From contig JARRQJ010000005.1 of the NCBI GenBank assembly GCA_037381915.1, positions 21,097-85,096 on the forward strand: a stretch of 64,000 nucleotides of DNA. Reading direction: 5' to 3'. This stretch comes from Gammaproteobacteria bacterium (GTDB lineage Bacteria > Pseudomonadota > Gammaproteobacteria > DRLM01). Within the stretch, counting starts at the first letter, position 1. Each line of letters begins with the position of its first letter. Shown one piece after another: positions 1,081 through 7,000 of this stretch. The notes below the pieces were generated by a model, which was not told the origin of the DNA, made no database searches, and saw only the letters and a list, made by a program, of their open reading frames with translations. A program made the position numbers and the translations under genes.

Positions 1081-3048
1081 ATGGTCGTGAGTCTCAATGC
1101 CCAGCAGCGCGCCGCGGTGCGCTATTTGGACGGTCCCCTGCTGGTGCTGGCGGGCGCCGGCAGCGGCAAGACCCGGCTGATCACCCACAAGATCACCTAT
1201 CTTATTAAGCAGTGCGGCATCGCGCCACAGCACATTGCCGCGGTGACCTTTACCAACAAGGCGGCGCGCGAGATGCACAGCCGTGTCGCCGCCCTGCTGG
1301 GCGGCGGGAAGGCCCAGGGGCTGCGGGTGTCCACCTTTCACAGCCTCGGTTTGCACATCCTGCGCCGCGAGACGGCGGCCCTGGGATACCGCCCGAACTT
1401 CTCCATTCTCGATGCCGAGGACAGCGCCGGCTTGATCCGCGACCTGTTGCGCCGGGAATTCAGCGACGACGGCCAGGTCGGTGCGGTGCAGCGGCAGATC
1501 TCCGCGTGGAAGAACGCCATGGTGGACGCCGAACAGGCATTTACCCTCGCCGCCGGCGATGCGGCCCGGGCCATGGCGGCGGGTTTGTACGGCCAGTATC
1601 AACGCCACCTCAAATCCTACAATGCCGTGGACTTCGACGATCTGATCTTTCTGCCGGCGCGGCTCCTGGGTGAACAGCCCGCAATCCTGGATGCCTGGCA
1701 GAACCGCATCCGCTACCTGCTGGTGGACGAGTATCAGGACACTAACAGCGGCCAATATCAACTGGTACGTATCCTCACCGGGGCGCGCGGCGCCCTCACC
1801 GCGGTGGGGGACGACGATCAATCGATTTACGCCTGGCGCGGCGCCCAACCGGAGAACCTTGCCCTGTTGCAGCAGGATTTTCCCAGTTTGAAGGTGATCA
1901 AGCTGGAGCAGAATTATCGCTCCACCGGGCGGATCCTCAAGGCCGCCAATCAGCTCATCGCCAACAATCCCCACGTATTCCCGAAATCCTTGTGGTGCGA
2001 ACTGGGTTACGGCGACCCGCTACGGGTGATCGAGACCCGCAGCGACGAACATGAAGCGGAGGTGGTGGTCTCGGAGATTCTGAGCCACAAATTCAAGCAC
2101 CGCGGCGCTTACCGCGATTATGTCATTCTCTATCGCGGCAACCATCAGGCTCGAGAAGACCCTGCGTGAACAACGCATCCCCTATTATCTCAGCGGCGGC
2201 ACTTCGTTTTTCAGCTATGCCGAGGTCAAGGACATCATGGCCTACCTGCGCCTGCTGGTGAATCCCGACGACGACAGCGCATTTCTCCGCGTGGTGAACG
2301 TTCCCCGCCGCGAGATCGGTCCCACCACCGTGGAAAAGCTGGCCGCGTACGCCGGGGGACGCGGTGTCAGCCTGTTTGCCGCCTGTTTTGAGCTGGGGCT
2401 CAAGACGCAATTGCCCGAGCGCGCTGCGACCCGTCTCGAACAATTCACCCGCTGGCTGGTAGAGCTGGGCGACCGCGGTCAACGTGGCGACCCCATCGCC
2501 GCGGCGCGGGACATGATCGCCGGTGCCAACTACGACCCATCGCCGCGGCGCGGGACATGATCGCCGGTGCCAACTACGAACAGTGGCTGCAGGACACCAG
2601 CAAAGACGAAAAGAGCGCGGAACGGCGCATGGCCAATGTTTGGGAGTTGATCGCATGGATGCAGCGCGTCGCCGAACATAACAGCGAAGACAAGACCCTC
2701 GCCGACCTGGTAGCGCACATGAGTTTGATGGATATCCTCGAACGCGGCGAGGACGACAGCAGCGCCGATTGTGTGCACCTGTTGACGTTGCATGCCGCCA
2801 AAGGTTTGGAATTTCCCCACGTATTCTTGGCGGGGATGGAAGAATCGCTATTGCCGCACCGCAGCAGTATCGAAGCGGATGATATAGAAGAGGAACGGCG
2901 TTTGGCCTATGTGGGCATCACCCGTTGCCGAACTGCCCGCCGACGATTTGCAGTGGGAGGGCGGCCGCCGCGAAGAGGACCCCGTGCAACGTCAGGAGCG
3001 CGGCCAGGCCCACCTCGCCAATCTGCGCGGATTGTTGAGTTCCGGATG
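1081..3048 (+). pseudogene. rep: ATP-dependent DNA helicase Rep (UvrD/Rep family), disrupted by two frameshifts and an internal deletion
   Basis: The N-terminus (LLVLAGAGSGKTRLITHKITYLI, Walker A) and motifs through YRGNHQ match Rep. The frame breaks at about 2149 (Rep-like sequence continues in frame +2: LEKTLREQRIPYYLSGGTSFF...). It returns to frame +1 after a 44-bp tandem duplication (2492-2579). A roughly 30-codon deletion with frameshift follows at about 2925 (GITR joined out-of-frame to [12 protein letters not shown]...HLANL, the C-terminus). Three ORF-track fragments (1081-2169, 2120-2560, 2557-3120) tile one Rep homologue. Confidence 0.8.
2492..2579. repeat. Perfect 44-bp tandem direct duplication (2 x CCCATCGCCGCGGCGCGGGACATGATCGCCGGTGCCAACTACGA) inside rep
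   Basis: Copy 1 is 2492-2535 and copy 2 is 2536-2579, identical by eye. 44 is not a multiple of 3, so the repeat shifts the reading frame. Removing one copy restores a continuous Rep-like sequence (...[22 protein letters not shown]...). Confidence 0.9.
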
Positions 3049-3126
3049 ACGATGTTGCGCTTGAACTGCGGCGCTTATTCGAACTTCGATCGAATGAAAA
3101 ATTTTCGACTTGACATTTGACAGTAT

Positions 3127-3154
3127 AGATACTTTACTTACTCGTTAAGTATCT
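3127..3154. promoter_or_regulatory. Inverted repeat AGATACTT-N12-AAGTATCT next to two overlapping TTGACA hexamers
   Basis: Seen directly: 8-bp perfect arms at 3127-3134 and 3147-3154. TTGACATTTGACAG lies immediately upstream at about 3103-3117. Candidate promoter/operator at the head of the 600-bp leader preceding the ParA-CBM48 gene. Confidence 0.3.
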
Positions 3155-3723
3155 CACGAGGGGTGAGTATGACCGATACGGGATCCTATGCCCGTCGGAT
3201 ACATGGTTTTGTTCAAACCAAGTTGCGCCGGACCTTACACTGGCGCTGCGTCAGCCCCGTCACCCCCGCTCATTCCCTTCCGAGTTTGTCTTACCCGATC
3301 GTTCCGCCCGTCATGCAGCGGAGACGGCAATGGACGGTGCATCCCTGCGCGCCTAGGCGCGGACGACGTCCAGTGTGTACGGCGCCAGGCTCCGTGCGCA
3401 GTCCATTGTCGAAATTGCTCACAAGCGTTACCACCCCGGCCCGAATGGGGGCATTCTTCCGTAACGAGGACGGGAGGTTTCCTTCCGTTCTTCCAAGGAT
3501 GGAGGGGGAGACACAGGGTGTGACTCCTCCTTTTAAAGAAGAGGTGGCCTGGGGTCGGGGTGGTTCCCTTTAAGCTGTACGAAACGAAGTGTCGGCATCG
3601 TTTATGTTTTAGTCGTCGCACCGATTCGATAGCGATACCGGCGACGGCGTTTAAGCGAAAGGAGGAACGGGCTCGCCCGGAAAACAGCGGAAATATCCTA
3701 TAAGGCATACGGAGGGATGTGGA

Positions 3724-4827
3724 ATGAATGTTATCGCCATTACTAACCAGAAGGGTGGCTGCGGCAAGACCACCTTCGCCATCAATCTCGCAGCGTGTTT
3801 GGGGCGCAAGGGATTGAGTGTCCTGCTCGTCGACATGGATTCACAAGGCCATTGCGGATTGGGTTTGGGCGTCAAACCCGAGGAAACCTGGGCAAGCCTC
3901 TATGAAGTCTTTATGGGTGACCTCGCTCTCTCCAACGTGATCGTCCCATCGGTGGCCCGGGGCGTGGACCTGGTGCCTGGGTTGCCAGATCTCGCGTTCG
4001 TGGAACAGCGGCTGGCGTTTCGCCAGGATCCGGAAGCCGAACTCTTCAAACAACTGTCCATGTTGGGCAGGCGCTACGACTACGTGGTGCTGGACAGCCA
4101 TCTGGCTCTAAACATCCTGGCGGTCAACGCCATCCGCGCCGCCCATCAGATTCTCGTTCCGATCGAGCTGAGTTCCTTTGCCCTGGATGGCATCTCGCGG
4201 GTGCGGGAAGTGGTGACGCAAATGTGCGAGCGGCACGGCGGTTATGCGGAGATCAAGATCGTTCCCTCGCGGGTCAATACCCGCACGCGCCTGGCCAACA
4301 GGCTGTTGGAGAATCTGCGGCGTGACTTGGCGGATGAGCTGCTGCCGGTGATGATACGGGAAAGCGTGCGGGTGCGGGAGGCGGCGGGTACCGGTCGTCC
4401 GGTGATCGATTTTGCGCCCAAATCCGCGGTGGCGGAGGATTTCTTGAATCTAACCGAGCTGTTGACCGGTGAGGTCGAAACCGTCGAAGAGGAACAGGCG
4501 TCGTCCGAGAGCGATGCGGCGCGTCCCGCCAGCATGACCTTCAGCGAGAGCATGGGCCTCGTCGGCGAGCGGCGGGTGGTATTGAGCTATCACCATTTCC
4601 TGGGGCGGGAATTGCAGATCGCCGGCGACTTCAACGATTGGATCCCGGACTATCTCGTGGAGACCCGCAGCTTCAACGGTACGGTGCAGAAGGTACTGAA
4701 GGTGCCGCCGGGCGCCTATCAGTATCGGGTGATCATCGACGGCGAGTGGCAGGAAGACCCGGTCAATCCGGTGCGGGTACCCAACGATATGGGCGGGACC
4801 AACTCGGTATTGCGGGTAACGGCATGA
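3724..4827 (+). CDS. ParA/MinD-family P-loop ATPase with C-terminal CBM48 (AMPK beta-subunit glycogen-binding) domain
   Basis: N-terminus has a deviant Walker A (KGGCGKTT, NQKGGCGKTTFAINLA) and ParA-like core (LLVDMDSQGH, VLDSHLALN...). An acidic linker follows (EVETVEEEQASSESD). The C-terminus (VVLSYHHFLGRELQIAGDFNDWIPDYLVETRSFNGTVQKVLKVPPGAYQYRVIIDGEWQEDPVNP) matches the CBM48 glycogen-binding fold. A rho-independent terminator follows the gene. Confidence 0.8.
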   Translation: MNVIAITNQKGGCGKTTFAINLAACLGRKGLSVLLVDMDSQGHCGLGLGVKPEETWASLYEVFMGDLALSNVIVPSVARGVDLVPGLPDLAFVEQRLAFRQDPEAELFKQLSMLGRRYDYVVLDSHLALNILAVNAIRAAHQILVPIELSSFALDGISRVREVVTQMCERHGGYAEIKIVPSRVNTRTRLANRLLENLRRDLADELLPVMIRESVRVREAAGTGRPVIDFAPKSAVAEDFLNLTELLTGEVETVEEEQASSESDAARPASMTFSESMGLVGERRVVLSYHHFLGRELQIAGDFNDWIPDYLVETRSFNGTVQKVLKVPPGAYQYRVIIDGEWQEDPVNPVRVPNDMGGTNSVLRVTA

Positions 4828-4914
4828 GTTTTTTTCGTGAGTTAGTGCGGCAAGCTAACGGCAGAGTAACAGAAGTAGTAAAGCAGTGATCATACTTTCA
4901 TCTTGTTGAACGGC

Positions 4915-4942
4915 ATCCCCGCCTCGGCGGGGATGATTTTTC
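4915..4942 (+). terminator. Rho-independent terminator after the ParA-CBM48 gene
   Basis: ATCCCCGCC-TCG-GCGGGGAT stem-loop followed by GATTTTTC. Confidence 0.6.
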
Positions 4943-5230
4943 AATCTATCACGACGCTTCGTACTTTTCCAGCCGACTGTTCGACGCTTTCCGATACAGG
5001 GGTCGCTTCACGGTCCGCGCTCCTTTGCCAAATGCCGCGATCAAGGCGGCAGAAATTGACCAGTGTTCTTCCGTATCGGTGCCACATCTAGGGGGCATTC
5101 CAGAGACGTTCCCGCCAAACGTACTCTTACCGGAAATATAGCCGAGTCACAAAAGATTCATCAAATTTTCACGCGGCGGACATCTTACTTGCCGATATTA
5201 CTATTGAAGTAAGGCAAGCGAGCAGGACTT

Positions 5231-5764
5231 ATGAGTGTCCATTCCGCTTTCAAACGCATGGAAAGCCGGGAGCTAGCGCTGTGTGAACTGTGCAACCGCG
5301 CCTGTCGCCTCCGCGCGATAAAGCGCTTGTTCATCGCCGTCAGTCGGCTTGGCAACGGTGTTTTCTGGTATCTACTTATCATCCTCTTGCCCTTCCGGTA
5401 CGGGAAGGACGCCCTGCAGGCCTCATTGCATATGTGCTTTGCGGGCATGATAGGCGTGGTACTGTATAAGTATCTGAAATCCCATCTGGCACGACAGCGG
5501 CCTTATATCCTGCACGGCGGGATTACCCTCGGGGCCGCCCCGCTGGATCTCTACAGCTTTCCTTCGGGGCATACCCTGCACGCCGTCACCTTTACCGTGG
5601 TGTGTTTGTCTTATTATCCACACCTGGCCTGGTTGCTTGTCCCCTTCGCCAGCCTGGTGGCGATGTCGCGGGTGATATTGGGACTGCATTATCCCAGTGA
5701 TGTCTTTGCCGGCGCGTTGATCGGTGCGTTACTGGCATGGGGCAGCTTCATGGTATTGCCGTGA
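5231..5764 (+). CDS. PAP2-superfamily phosphatase (phosphatidic acid/undecaprenyl-PP/PGP phosphatase-like)
   Basis: Three PAP2 signature motifs are present: KSHLARQRPY (KX6RP), PSGHT, SRVILGLHYPSD (SRX5HX3D). A multi-TM protein. Confidence 0.8.
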   Translation: MSVHSAFKRMESRELALCELCNRACRLRAIKRLFIAVSRLGNGVFWYLLIILLPFRYGKDALQASLHMCFAGMIGVVLYKYLKSHLARQRPYILHGGITLGAAPLDLYSFPSGHTLHAVTFTVVCLSYYPHLAWLLVPFASLVAMSRVILGLHYPSDVFAGALIGALLAWGSFMVLP

Positions 5765-5806
5765 CCTACAACTCGCCTGACGGCGACGAACACCATTAGT
5801 CGAACC

Positions 5807-7000
5807 GTGCGCATCCTGTTTATCTCCGATGTGTTCTTTCCCCGCGTCAACGGGGTGTCCACGTCGCTGCAGACGTTTTGGCGGGAGCTGGAGCGCCTGG
5901 GGCACGAGGTCATCATTATCGCGCCCGACTATGGCCGCCAGGAGGGTGATGATCCCTGCTTGAGACGCATTCCCGCACGGGTCGTCATGTTCGATCCCGA
6001 GGATCGCATGATGCACAAACGCCGCATTCTCGATTTGGCGGATGAGCTGCGGCGTCAGGATGTCGATGTGATTCACATTCAGACACCGTTTGTCGCCCAT
6101 TACGCGGGCGTCGAACTCTCGCGCGATTTGAACGTACCGCGCATTGAAACCTATCACACGTTCTTCGAGGAATATCTGTTTCATTATGTGCCCTATCTGC
6201 CCGCGTCGTGGCTGCGTTATGCGGCAAGACGATTCTCCCGGGCGCAATGCAATGAAGTCGATGCCGTCGTGGTGCCGTCCATCGCCATGCGCGATATCCT
6301 GGCAGGGTACGGGGTGACGACGCCTACGGAAGTGCTCCCCACCGGCATTCAGCTGGAGCAATTCGAGGGTGGCGACGGAGCGCGCTTTCGTGCTGTCCAT
6401 CAGATCCCGCGCGAGCGGCCACTGCTGCTGCATGTCGGCCGCGTGGCCTTTGAAAAGAACATCGGCTTTCTGTTGCGCATGGTGAAGCGTGTCAAGGCCG
6501 AGATTGCGGACATCTTGTTCGTGATCGCCGGCGAAGGTCCGGCAACGGTGGCGCTGCGTCGCGAAGCGCGGGATCTGGGGGTCGAGGGCAATGTGCTATT
6601 CGTCGGCAACATGCAGCGTGACACGGAGCTGCTGGACTGTTATCGCGCCGCGAATGTGAAAGTGTTCGCCTCCCGCACCGAAACGCAGGGCCTGGTGCTG
6701 TTAGAAGCGATGGCCTTGGGTGTTCCGGTGGTATCCACGGCCGTGATGGGCACCACGGATGTACTGCAACCCGGTTGCGGCGCGGAAGTTGTCAGGGAAG
6801 ACGAACAGGAATTCGCGGCGGCCGTTGTGCGTGTGCTGGTTGACCAGGATCTGGCGTCGAGGCTGGGCAAGGCCGGCAGAGAATATGTCAAGTCATGGGC
6901 GGCGCCGGTCATGGCGCGGCGCATGGTCGATCTCTACCGGCATGTGGTCGAGACGCGTAGAGCACACCCTCGCAGCAGTACGCAAGACGCGGGCCTGTAA
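5807..7000 (+). CDS. GT4-family (GT-B) glycosyltransferase
   Basis: N-terminus MRILFISDVFFPRVNGVST (typical GT4 start) and a C-terminal E-X7-E-like region (ETQGLVLLEAMALGVPVVST). GTG start. Confidence 0.8.
   Translation: MRILFISDVFFPRVNGVSTSLQTFWRELERLGHEVIIIAPDYGRQEGDDPCLRRIPARVVMFDPEDRMMHKRRILDLADELRRQDVDVIHIQTPFVAHYAGVELSRDLNVPRIETYHTFFEEYLFHYVPYLPASWLRYAARRFSRAQCNEVDAVVVPSIAMRDILAGYGVTTPTEVLPTGIQLEQFEGGDGARFRAVHQIPRERPLLLHVGRVAFEKNIGFLLRMVKRVKAEIADILFVIAGEGPATVALRREARDLGVEGNVLFVGNMQRDTELLDCYRAANVKVFASRTETQGLVLLEAMALGVPVVSTAVMGTTDVLQPGCGAEVVREDEQEFAAAVVRVLVDQDLASRLGKAGREYVKSWAAPVMARRMVDLYRHVVETRRAHPRSSTQDAGL

Follow-up and report, generated by a model that had tools for sequence, protein, structure and literature searches.

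A Soj/ParA-type ATPase fused to an AMPK-beta-type CBM48 domain, a candidate ATP-dependent tether for glycogen granules

A 64,000-nucleotide (nt) stretch of chromosomal DNA from a gammaproteobacterium (contig JARRQJ010000005.1, positions 21,097 to 85,096; hereafter the window) encodes on its forward strand a protein in which a ParA-type ATPase is fused to a carbohydrate-binding module (CBM) of the CBM48 family. The coding sequence of this protein, ParA-CBM48, spans positions 3724..4827 and comprises 367 codons plus the stop codon. The product has three parts, namely an ATPase domain at amino acids (aa) 1-250, a linker at about aa 251-280 and a CBM48 domain at aa 281-367. Our favoured reading, to which we assign a probability of roughly 45%, is that ParA-CBM48 positions glycogen granules on the nucleoid as an ATP-dependent tether. 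We infer both the glycogen cargo and the positioning function from the domains alone.

Pfam, PDB sequence searches, two AlphaFold models and Foldseek concordantly confirm this architecture, which an earlier note on the DNA had recognised as a complete ParA ATPase joined to a C-terminal CBM48. Profile searches matched AAA_31 (aa 1-170, E=2.9e-41), CbiA (aa 4-227, E=2.9e-18) and AMPK1_CBM (PF16561; aa 285-366, E=3.1e-10, 40.5 bits against a gathering cut-off of 26.8). A full-length AlphaFold model built on 99 homologues, with a mean predicted local distance difference test score (pLDDT) of 84.9, shows a confident ATPase domain at aa 1-250, a disordered segment at aa 252-279 and an all-beta domain at aa 283-365. 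The arrangement is not due to chance, as the exact protein is present on 8 further contigs and more than 170 proteins have the same layout. The conservation counts given below come from an alignment of 179 sequences, comprising the window protein and 178 other fused proteins, which come from gammaproteobacterial MAGs (metagenome-assembled genomes) of sulfur-oxidiser type, Planctomycetota and other groups.

The N-terminal domain (3724..4473) belongs to the ParA/MinD superfamily of deviant-Walker-A ATPases. Its KGGCGKTT motif, pointed out in the earlier note, lies at aa 10-17 (nt 3751-3774) and includes the signature lysine K10 as well as K15. The further motif residues D37, D39 and D124, the Walker A' and Walker B aspartates, are also kept in the family. 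K10, K15 and D37 are present in all 171 sequences that have these positions, D124 in 176 of 176 and the Walker A cysteine C13 (KGGCGKT) in 167 of 171. Dimerisation upon ATP binding and ATP hydrolysis are predicted from these conserved motifs. In a search of PDB sequences, the ATPase domain was closest to the ParA structure 8ray (E=6e-40) and then to Soj from T. thermophilus (E=2e-29), whereas MinD proteins were matched at E=1e-16 or weaker. In Foldseek, Soj and ParA structures (9a6n, 8ray, 2bek) came first, with target-normalised template-modelling (TM) scores of 0.92-0.93 and a root-mean-square deviation (rmsd) of 1.5-2.1 Å, followed by McdA (6non, 6nop), FleN, BcsQ and MinD, the latter at a TM score of about 0.8.

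Two arginines of Bacillus subtilis Soj are essential for DNA binding and have conserved equivalents in PpfA and PomZ (PMC7229837). According to our own numbering and alignment, which are not taken from that paper, these residues are R189 and R218 of Soj and correspond to R187 and R216 of the window protein. R187 is found in 169 of the 179 sequences, and position 216 is occupied by R or K in 173. The surface arginines for nucleoid DNA binding are thus preserved as positions, and the protein would be expected to bind DNA. No curated NCBIfam model was reached at its cut-off. The best was ParA_partition, with 109.3 bits against a required 180, and the protein fell far below the cut-offs of RepA, SopA and the other ParA-type models. 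Similarly, PADLOC returned no match to a defence system. ParA-CBM48 stands outside ParABS ParA, MinD and every curated equivalog, and its Walker A is the single occurrence of KGGxGK[ST] within the 64-kb window.

The C-terminal domain (4564..4824) is a CBM48 of the AMPK-beta type by sequence and by modelled fold, and it is predicted to bind glycogen or an alpha-glucan. The stretches that characterise it are FNDW (aa 303-306), by which the module had been spotted initially, and YQYRVIIDGEWQEDP (aa 332-346). A PDB sequence search with this domain matched the AMPK beta1 CBM (E=1.5e-10). Modelled alone, the domain reached a pLDDT of 90.4, and Foldseek ranked the CBMs of AMPK beta1 and beta2 best (1z0m, 4yee, 2f15; TM 0.77-0.83, rmsd 2.0-2.1 Å). 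The match to 1z0m had a TM score of 0.83 at an rmsd of 2.1 Å, and the starch phosphatase SEX4 came next. The C-terminus, which the earlier note had singled out as the place where its proposal might fail, thus has the AMPK-beta CBM fold in the AlphaFold model.

Alignment with AMPK beta1 pairs W100 with W306, K126 with R335, W133 with W342, G147 with G357 and N150 with N360, which makes these residues of the window protein putative sugar contacts; in AMPK, N150 also contacts the sugar. W306, W342 and G357 are each present in 179 of 179 sequences, position 335 is R in 176 and K in the other 3, and N360 is found in 175. In AMPK, glycogen binding is lost with the substitutions W100G or K126Q and becomes weaker with W133L or G147R (PMC6274970). 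When the CBM alone was compared with 1.84 billion representative proteins, its nearest single-domain relatives (52-72% identical) fell into two groups. The first consists of ParA fusions of 356-682 aa, with the fusion architecture in 4 of 4 proteins scanned, and the second of short proteins of 90-229 aa, in which AMPK1_CBM was the sole significant domain in 3 of 3 scanned. The rest of the list is made up of proteins with multiple CBM48 repeats. Since the nearest relatives are either ParA fusions or short CBM proteins, the CBM forms a dedicated sub-lineage that has travelled with the ATPase.

The two domains are connected by a flexible acidic linker (4474..4563, about aa 251-280) with the sequence VETVEEEQASSESDAARPASMTFSESMGLV. 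It carries a net charge of -6 and has pLDDT values below 50 at aa 252-279, so that the acidic linker described earlier is seen as a disordered segment in the AlphaFold model. Across the family, the linkers are 16-236 aa long with a composition biased towards A, E, P, S and T, and 122 of the 178 have a net acidic charge. Such variation in length together with low complexity is as expected of a tether. One short stretch of this variable linker is conserved: the motif (M/L)TFSES(M/L)G, found in the window at 4534-4557 (aa 271-278), is shared by 24 of 178 family members and confined to the closest clade and some relatives that are about 50-55% identical to the window protein. This motif could be a docking or regulatory peptide.

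A database search with the window protein gave 1,181 matches, of which the best 120 were nearly all full-length and combined ParA with PF16561 down to 42% identity. With its ATP-binding, Soj-arginine and AMPK-contact positions all nearly invariant in the alignment, ParA-CBM48 is a real family. A scan at one genome per species yielded 80 loci. About 20 of these come from gammaproteobacterial metagenome-assembled genomes (MAGs) labelled Chromatiaceae, Thiohalobacter/Thiohalobacterales, Sulfuricaulis or Sulfurifustaceae, and about 40 from Planctomycetota, mostly Phycisphaerae and Pirellulales, with 28-37% identity and longer linkers. One locus is labelled Gemmatimonadales and one Desulfobia. Every fused match originates from a MAG. 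Carriers include the contigs CAVXFH010000002.1 (3.0 Mb) and CAWEOA010000002.1 (885 kb) and the assembly GCA_037381845.1. P0029, a protein from an NCBI MAG, matches aa 1-263 of the window protein at 99% identity but diverges wholly from there on with no change in total length, which suggests a frameshift in that assembly that conceals the CBM48 from annotation. A role as a plasmid partition protein was rejected: among the 5,000 best-scoring records of a plasmid collection, none was covered beyond the ATPase part, which matched at no more than 36% identity, and the fusion was not found in this collection.

No ParA positioning system is known to operate without a partner that activates the ATPase at its cargo. 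The neighbourhoods examined span about 20 kb around each homologue. The window holds no ParB-like neighbour and no parB/parS context. No minC, minE or other min genes lie near ParA-CBM48, and parB, dnaA or ftsZ regulators are not linked to it in any clade. Clustering of the neighbours at 84 loci and in the first 16 kb of the window revealed no gene that every clade keeps beside the fusion. When 61 neighbours taken from 24 dereplicated loci were scanned with Pfam, TPR, kinase, GT2 and MerR matches turned up here and there, but neither ParB nor glg genes nor any common theme. An adjacent partner or adaptor is absent from the clade of the window and from the planctomycetal loci, and no ParB-like or other adaptor recurs consistently across the family. 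The description of the window gene as an orphan without a parB-like partner therefore holds.

The favoured reading can be laid out as a cycle of four steps. ATP binding would drive formation of a sandwich dimer via the signature lysine K10, and the dimer would then bind chromosomal DNA non-specifically through a basic patch that includes R187 and R216. Its two CBM48 domains, held on flexible linkers, would grip alpha-glucan chains at the surface of a cytoplasmic granule, where many weak CBM48 contacts might sum to a firm attachment. Hydrolysis of ATP, at a basal rate or stimulated by some factor encoded elsewhere, would reset the cycle and release the bridge. As a net effect, granules would be tethered to and spread over the nucleoid, kept dispersed and inherited by both daughter cells. 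Because no ATPase-stimulating partner is encoded here, we favour tethering and dispersal over full Brownian-ratchet positioning, a preference that would shift if glycogen or an unlinked factor stimulated the ATPase.

Several observations weigh against glycogen tethering by ParA-CBM48. Directed positioning, as opposed to passive tethering, is doubtful without an encoded stimulator, and glycogen granules in the uncultured host organisms are presumed. Among the 10 largest open reading frames (ORFs) of the window, the only ones scanned (gatB, gatA, PBP2, polA, gspD, gspE, cstA, a GGDEF-EAL protein, uvrD and a gene for a thiamine pyrophosphate enzyme), and beside the homologues, there are no glycogen genes. 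By analogy with AMPK, whose CBM is also regulatory and contacts protein, glycogen could be a signal rather than a cargo. Moreover, in a sister gammaproteobacterial clade that is 41-50% identical to the window protein (L006, L007, L009, L010, L013, L058 and others), the fusion is part of an operon with the order MerR regulator, ParA-CBM48, cl2, cl6 and double response regulator (L058 9378-13125). The cl2 protein (203-256 aa) is translationally coupled, as its start overlaps the stop codon of the ParA gene, and cl6 is about 195 aa long with the C-terminus EEEAFFQHL. These two conserved proteins, which could be the true partners or the true cargo, gave no match in Pfam, NCBIfam or PADLOC.

Loss of the ATPase domain points in the same direction. 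In L060 and L061, two independent Thiohalobacter MAGs, the ATPase domain is gone and the CBM48 is left upstream of cl2. In L060 (9935-10303), a 122-aa CBM48 protein that keeps the old linker is encoded between MerR and cl2, and L061 (10001-10291) likewise encodes a CBM48 without the ATPase domain. In a different context, L064 (9965-10258) and L065 (779-1066) encode a CBM48 alone, of 95-97 aa. Since these variants keep the CBM48, the module has a use independent of ParA activity. The earlier idea of a stand-alone, one-protein positioning module therefore does not extend to the whole family: the gene is an orphan in the window, but the sister clade has the MerR/cl2/cl6 operon, and some relatives lack the ATPase domain. 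The possibility that cl2 is a degenerate ParA was discarded after comparison with the family profile (hhalign probability 0.5%), and tblastn for degraded MerR, cl2 or cl6 genes in the window or close relatives gave nothing at E <= 1 but noise.

MinD has a weak C-terminal membrane anchor that is effective only in the ATP dimer. ParA-CBM48 might be a switch of this kind, whose CBM48 coats granules only in the ATP-bound dimer and recruits or regulates proteins there, with no role for the nucleoid; the recruited proteins would be glycogen enzymes or the two operon partners of the sister clade. We consider this unlikely. The CBM48 follows the last ATPase helix at the C-terminus, as the membrane-targeting helix does in MinD, and a single CBM48 binds weakly, so that avidity gained by dimerisation is plausible. 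The two translationally coupled partner genes of the sister clade would also fit, as would the ATPase-less CBM48 variants that remain beside the partner genes, and the best PDB matches of the cl2 profile are the ATPases FleN/FlhG, albeit not significant at E=0.12. However, the ATPase is far closer to Soj/ParA than to MinD in both E-value and TM score, and a cycle confined to glycogen leaves the conserved Soj DNA-binding arginines unexplained. Furthermore, the partner genes are missing from the clade of the window.

Alternatively, the CBM48 could report the amount or kind of glycogen and thereby sequester or release a Soj/MipZ-like ATPase whose true target is replication initiation, chromosome segregation or division-site placement, coupling carbon reserves to the cell cycle. 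In AMPK, the CBM senses glycogen and inhibits the kinase (PMC2642990, PMC6274970), and Soj and MipZ are regulators in addition to being partition ATPases (PMC7229837). The long structured 5' leader of the gene, described below, suggests tight regulation as well. We regard such a glycogen sensor as improbable, because none of the possible target or partner genes named above is linked to the fusion in any clade, the long and variable linker suggests reach over allosteric coupling, and the ATPase-less variants show that the CBM is useful alone.

BcsQ localises cellulose synthase, and by the same token the ATPase might localise a biosynthetic machine while the CBM48 serves purely as a protein-protein module or binds another alpha-glucan or a glycoconjugate, such as an intermediate formed in the cytoplasm during capsule or exopolysaccharide synthesis. 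We regard this as very improbable. Pfam BcsQ does match the ATPase domain (E=8e-11, with BcsQ structures among the fold matches), but Soj/ParA is matched far more strongly. The positions that touch alpha-1,4/1,6-glucan in AMPK hardly vary in this family, and as nothing in the protein points to membrane association, its ligand should be cytoplasmic. The sugar-related genes that could speak for this reading are a glycosyltransferase family 4 (GT4) and PAP2 phosphatase pair downstream throughout the closest clade and glycosyltransferases and a glycoside hydrolase family 5 cellulase near some planctomycetal homologues. However, the GT4 gene lies beyond the terminator, most resembles monoglucosyl-diacylglycerol synthases and is not conserved outside that clade.

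Full-text searches pairing ParA terms with glycogen or CBM48 found no link between ParA/MinD and glycogen, and neither a 2024 review of ParA/MinD positioning nor a 2023 study of seven ATPases mentions glycogen or granules. Within the literature searched, the statement in the earlier note that it knew of no characterised ParA-like system for glycogen agrees with what we found. Its listing of polyhydroxybutyrate (PHB) granules among the established ParA/MinD cargos appears to be inaccurate. The word granule is absent from both the 2023 and the 2024 paper. Proteins of the PhaM/PhaF type attach PHB granules to the nucleoid, and no ParA is known to do so.

The ParA-CBM48 gene begins with an ATG codon and its product with MNVIAITNQKGGCGKTT. 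A Shine-Dalgarno sequence, GGAGGG at 3711..3716 on the forward strand, lies 8 nt 5' of the ATG, and its GGAGG core is kept in relatives. Upstream of the gene we found a non-coding gap of 674 nt (3050-3723), the stop codon of the preceding rep gene having been mapped via identical contigs. The unusual leader of about 600 bp reported earlier is thus real, and other assemblies that carry ParA-CBM48 likewise call no gene in it. The leader ORFs at 3163-3573 (+), 3188-3523 (+) and 3235-3708 (-) were rejected as genes, as they are rich in Arg and Pro and change frame between relatives. An alignment of the leaders of five relatives contains two conserved islands amid diverged sequence, at about 3110-3267 and at 3424-3575. 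An invariant block at the 5' end of the leader (3110..3151, + strand) resembles a promoter and an operator, with TTGACA at 3110-3115, repeated at 3117-3122, and the inverted repeat TACTTTACTTAnnCGTTAAGTA at 3130-3151. A sigma-70 consensus scan was silent on this block because there is no good -10 hexamer. The region 3110-3267 may hold the promoter, an operator and the transcript start, which is predicted to fall near 3140-3160.

Two RNA domains are predicted on the forward strand of the leader. Domain 2 (3424..3575) is a structured RNA of about 150 nt with covariation support. Its closing helix has 14 bp; this helix and an invariant inner one (UCUUC/GAAGA) surround a branch with two 12-bp hairpins and one 3-bp hairpin. 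For 13 distinct sequences, RNAalifold predicted a consensus of 51 pairs at -84 kcal/mol, with compensatory changes in 14 of the pairs. In this alignment 96.8% of cells are paired, compared to 53-65% when the partners are slid by 1-3 columns, and all 500 shuffles stayed short of the observed value on each of five measures. A covariance model gave 156 bits for the + strand, compared with 41 bits for the - strand; these scores and the G-U pairs place domain 2 on the strand of the gene. Support for domain 1 (3159..3267) is weaker. RNAalifold on 11 relatives predicts 28 pairs, 7 of them compensatory, and the single-sequence fold has a z-score of -3.16. Domain 1 is closed by the helix GGGGUGA/UCACCCC around three inner hairpins, one of which has the invariant stem ACGGG/CCCGU.

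At the loci examined, domain 2 occurs solely 5' of ParA-CBM48 in the closest clade, the members of which share 77-93% protein identity. A metagenome scan for the core of the domain 2 motif gave 27 loci, 11 with ParA-CBM48 immediately downstream; the other 16, which have no similarity to the leader or the gene, were taken as chance matches. A covariance-model search of the other clades and the rest of the window recovered the window copy alone, and a weak truncated match in the coding region of L020 (E=0.039) was judged spurious. Because only a narrow lineage carries the leader RNA, the evidence from covariation, although real, is shallow. An Rfam cmscan of positions 2800-5300 on both strands at E <= 1 gave no match. 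The leader looks like a long structured 5' untranslated region, and its domain 2 is a candidate new cis-regulatory RNA. Downstream of the gene, an intrinsic-terminator-like hairpin (4914..4945, + strand) starts 87 nt past the stop codon, in keeping with the clean terminator noted in the first reading of the DNA. It has the sequence CATCCCCGCC-TCGG-CGGGGATG followed by ATTTTTCAAT, with a stem at 4914-4935 of 9 pairs, 7 of them G-C, and then ATTTTT.

Glycogen tethering by ParA-CBM48 can be framed as an adaptor-free positioning system, in which a nucleoid-bound ParA would grip granules through its own CBM. Glycogen would then be the first polysaccharide cargo of the ParA/MinD family and ParA-CBM48 the first case of an ATPase with cargo recognition built in, and the lineage-specific leader RNA would be a new cis-regulator that tunes the system. 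We put this fuller picture forward tentatively, judging its odds to be somewhat short of even.

The genes around ParA-CBM48 are conserved in the closest clade. Among the closest relatives (77-93% identity), as in the window itself, the 5' side shows the order sucrose-phosphate synthase, sucrose synthase, MscS, Rep helicase and a leader of about 670 nt, of which MscS and the Rep/UvrD helicase are the upstream neighbours within the window. PAP2, GT4, UPF0114 and a Na+/H+ exchanger follow on the 3' side. The PAP2 and GT4 pair (5231-7000, + strand) is kept downstream throughout this clade. GT4 shows its best likeness, below the cut-off, to alpha-monoglucosyl-diacylglycerol synthase, and we rejected it as a glycogen synthase in view of this likeness, its location beyond the terminator and its pairing with PAP2. 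The two genes probably make a glycolipid and are unrelated to the ParA gene. Two relatives have an extra ORF of 142-162 aa between ParA-CBM48 and PAP2 (L001 11548-12036 and L002 12637-13065). Its product (YYLIYVSSA...) may be a BLUF blue-light sensor domain.

On L081 (713-6187, just upstream of the window start), a contig of the same organism, genes for fructokinase, sucrose-phosphate synthase/phosphatase and sucrose synthase are clustered 5' of MscS and rep, and the same cluster is present in L001, L002 and L004. Sucrose synthase can supply nucleotide-glucose, and the cluster is a loose hint at sugar-storage metabolism in the host. The Rep/UvrD helicase gene of the window (1081-3049, + strand) is split into three frames, compared to an intact gene of 671 aa on L081. 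Against that copy, the window gene has an indel of 1 nt near 2150, about 48 nt duplicated around 2488-2580 and 82 nt deleted at 2925. The broken gene represents either a strain pseudogene or an assembly artefact.

ParA/MinD ATPases are a general bacterial tool for placing chromosomes, plasmids, carboxysomes, chemoreceptor arrays, flagella and the divisome, and in every characterised case that we know of, the ATPase reaches its cargo through a separate partner protein. If the tethering proposal is true, ParA-CBM48 would add both a new class of cargo, storage polysaccharide, and a new design, in which the motor itself carries the cargo-binding part, and it would show that the arrangement and partitioning of glycogen stores is an active process in bacteria. 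The question of whether bacteria place their glycogen granules actively and pass them on to daughter cells has hardly been raised. The family occurs widely among uncultured sulfur-oxidising Gammaproteobacteria and among Planctomycetota, and this distribution may explain why it has escaped notice. As each activity can be assigned one conserved residue (K15 for ATP, R187 for DNA and W306 for glycogen), testing the hypothesis would cost little. The leader RNA, with its covariation-supported element of about 150 nt that lacks an Rfam match, is a separate lead.

Comparison with known systems would place ParA-CBM48 nearest to McdA or Soj on the ATPase side and to the AMPK-beta and plant CBM48 proteins on the CBM side. 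Soj and ParA of ParABS systems (1wcv/2bek, H. pylori Soj 6iub, 8ray) use the nucleoid as a matrix. They have the same fold and are 28-33% identical to the ParA-CBM48 ATPase, with the same signature lysine in the deviant Walker A, the Walker A' and B aspartates and the arginines equivalent to R189 and R218. In contrast to them, ParA-CBM48 has neither a parB gene nor a parS context, falls below the ParA_partition cut-off and carries Cys in place of Val in its Walker A; moreover, we know of no characterised ParA with a C-terminal linker and CBM48. McdA/McdB belongs, with PpfA and ParC, to the two-component ParA-like cargo systems. On the favoured reading, ParA-CBM48 resembles them as an orphan ParA-type ATPase that would organise a large non-DNA cytoplasmic body via the nucleoid. 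McdA reaches the carboxysome through a separate adaptor, McdB, which also stimulates the ATPase, whereas in ParA-CBM48 the cargo module is fused, no stimulator is encoded nearby and the presumed cargo is a polysaccharide rather than a protein shell.

On the side of the CBM, ParA-CBM48 has the CBM48 fold and the sugar-contact residues in common with the AMPK/SNF1 beta subunits, SEX4, LSF1 and PTST. In those proteins, a non-catalytic CBM48 brings another activity to a glucan particle, as it may do here. However, the partner domain in ParA-CBM48 is a P-loop positioning ATPase instead of a kinase scaffold, a phosphatase or a coiled coil, and the protein is bacterial and cytoplasmic. MinD belongs to the same ATPase superfamily and has a C-terminal surface-binding element for which dimerisation could raise avidity, but ParA-CBM48 lacks the amphipathic membrane-targeting helix and scores 46 bits with the MinD model TIGR01968 against a cut-off of 212.9. 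The PhaM/PhaF-type proteins of PHB/PHA granules have the outcome that we propose for ParA-CBM48, a storage granule attached to the nucleoid and passed to both daughter cells, yet they are unrelated to it, as they bind DNA via histone-like tails and go through no ATPase cycle.

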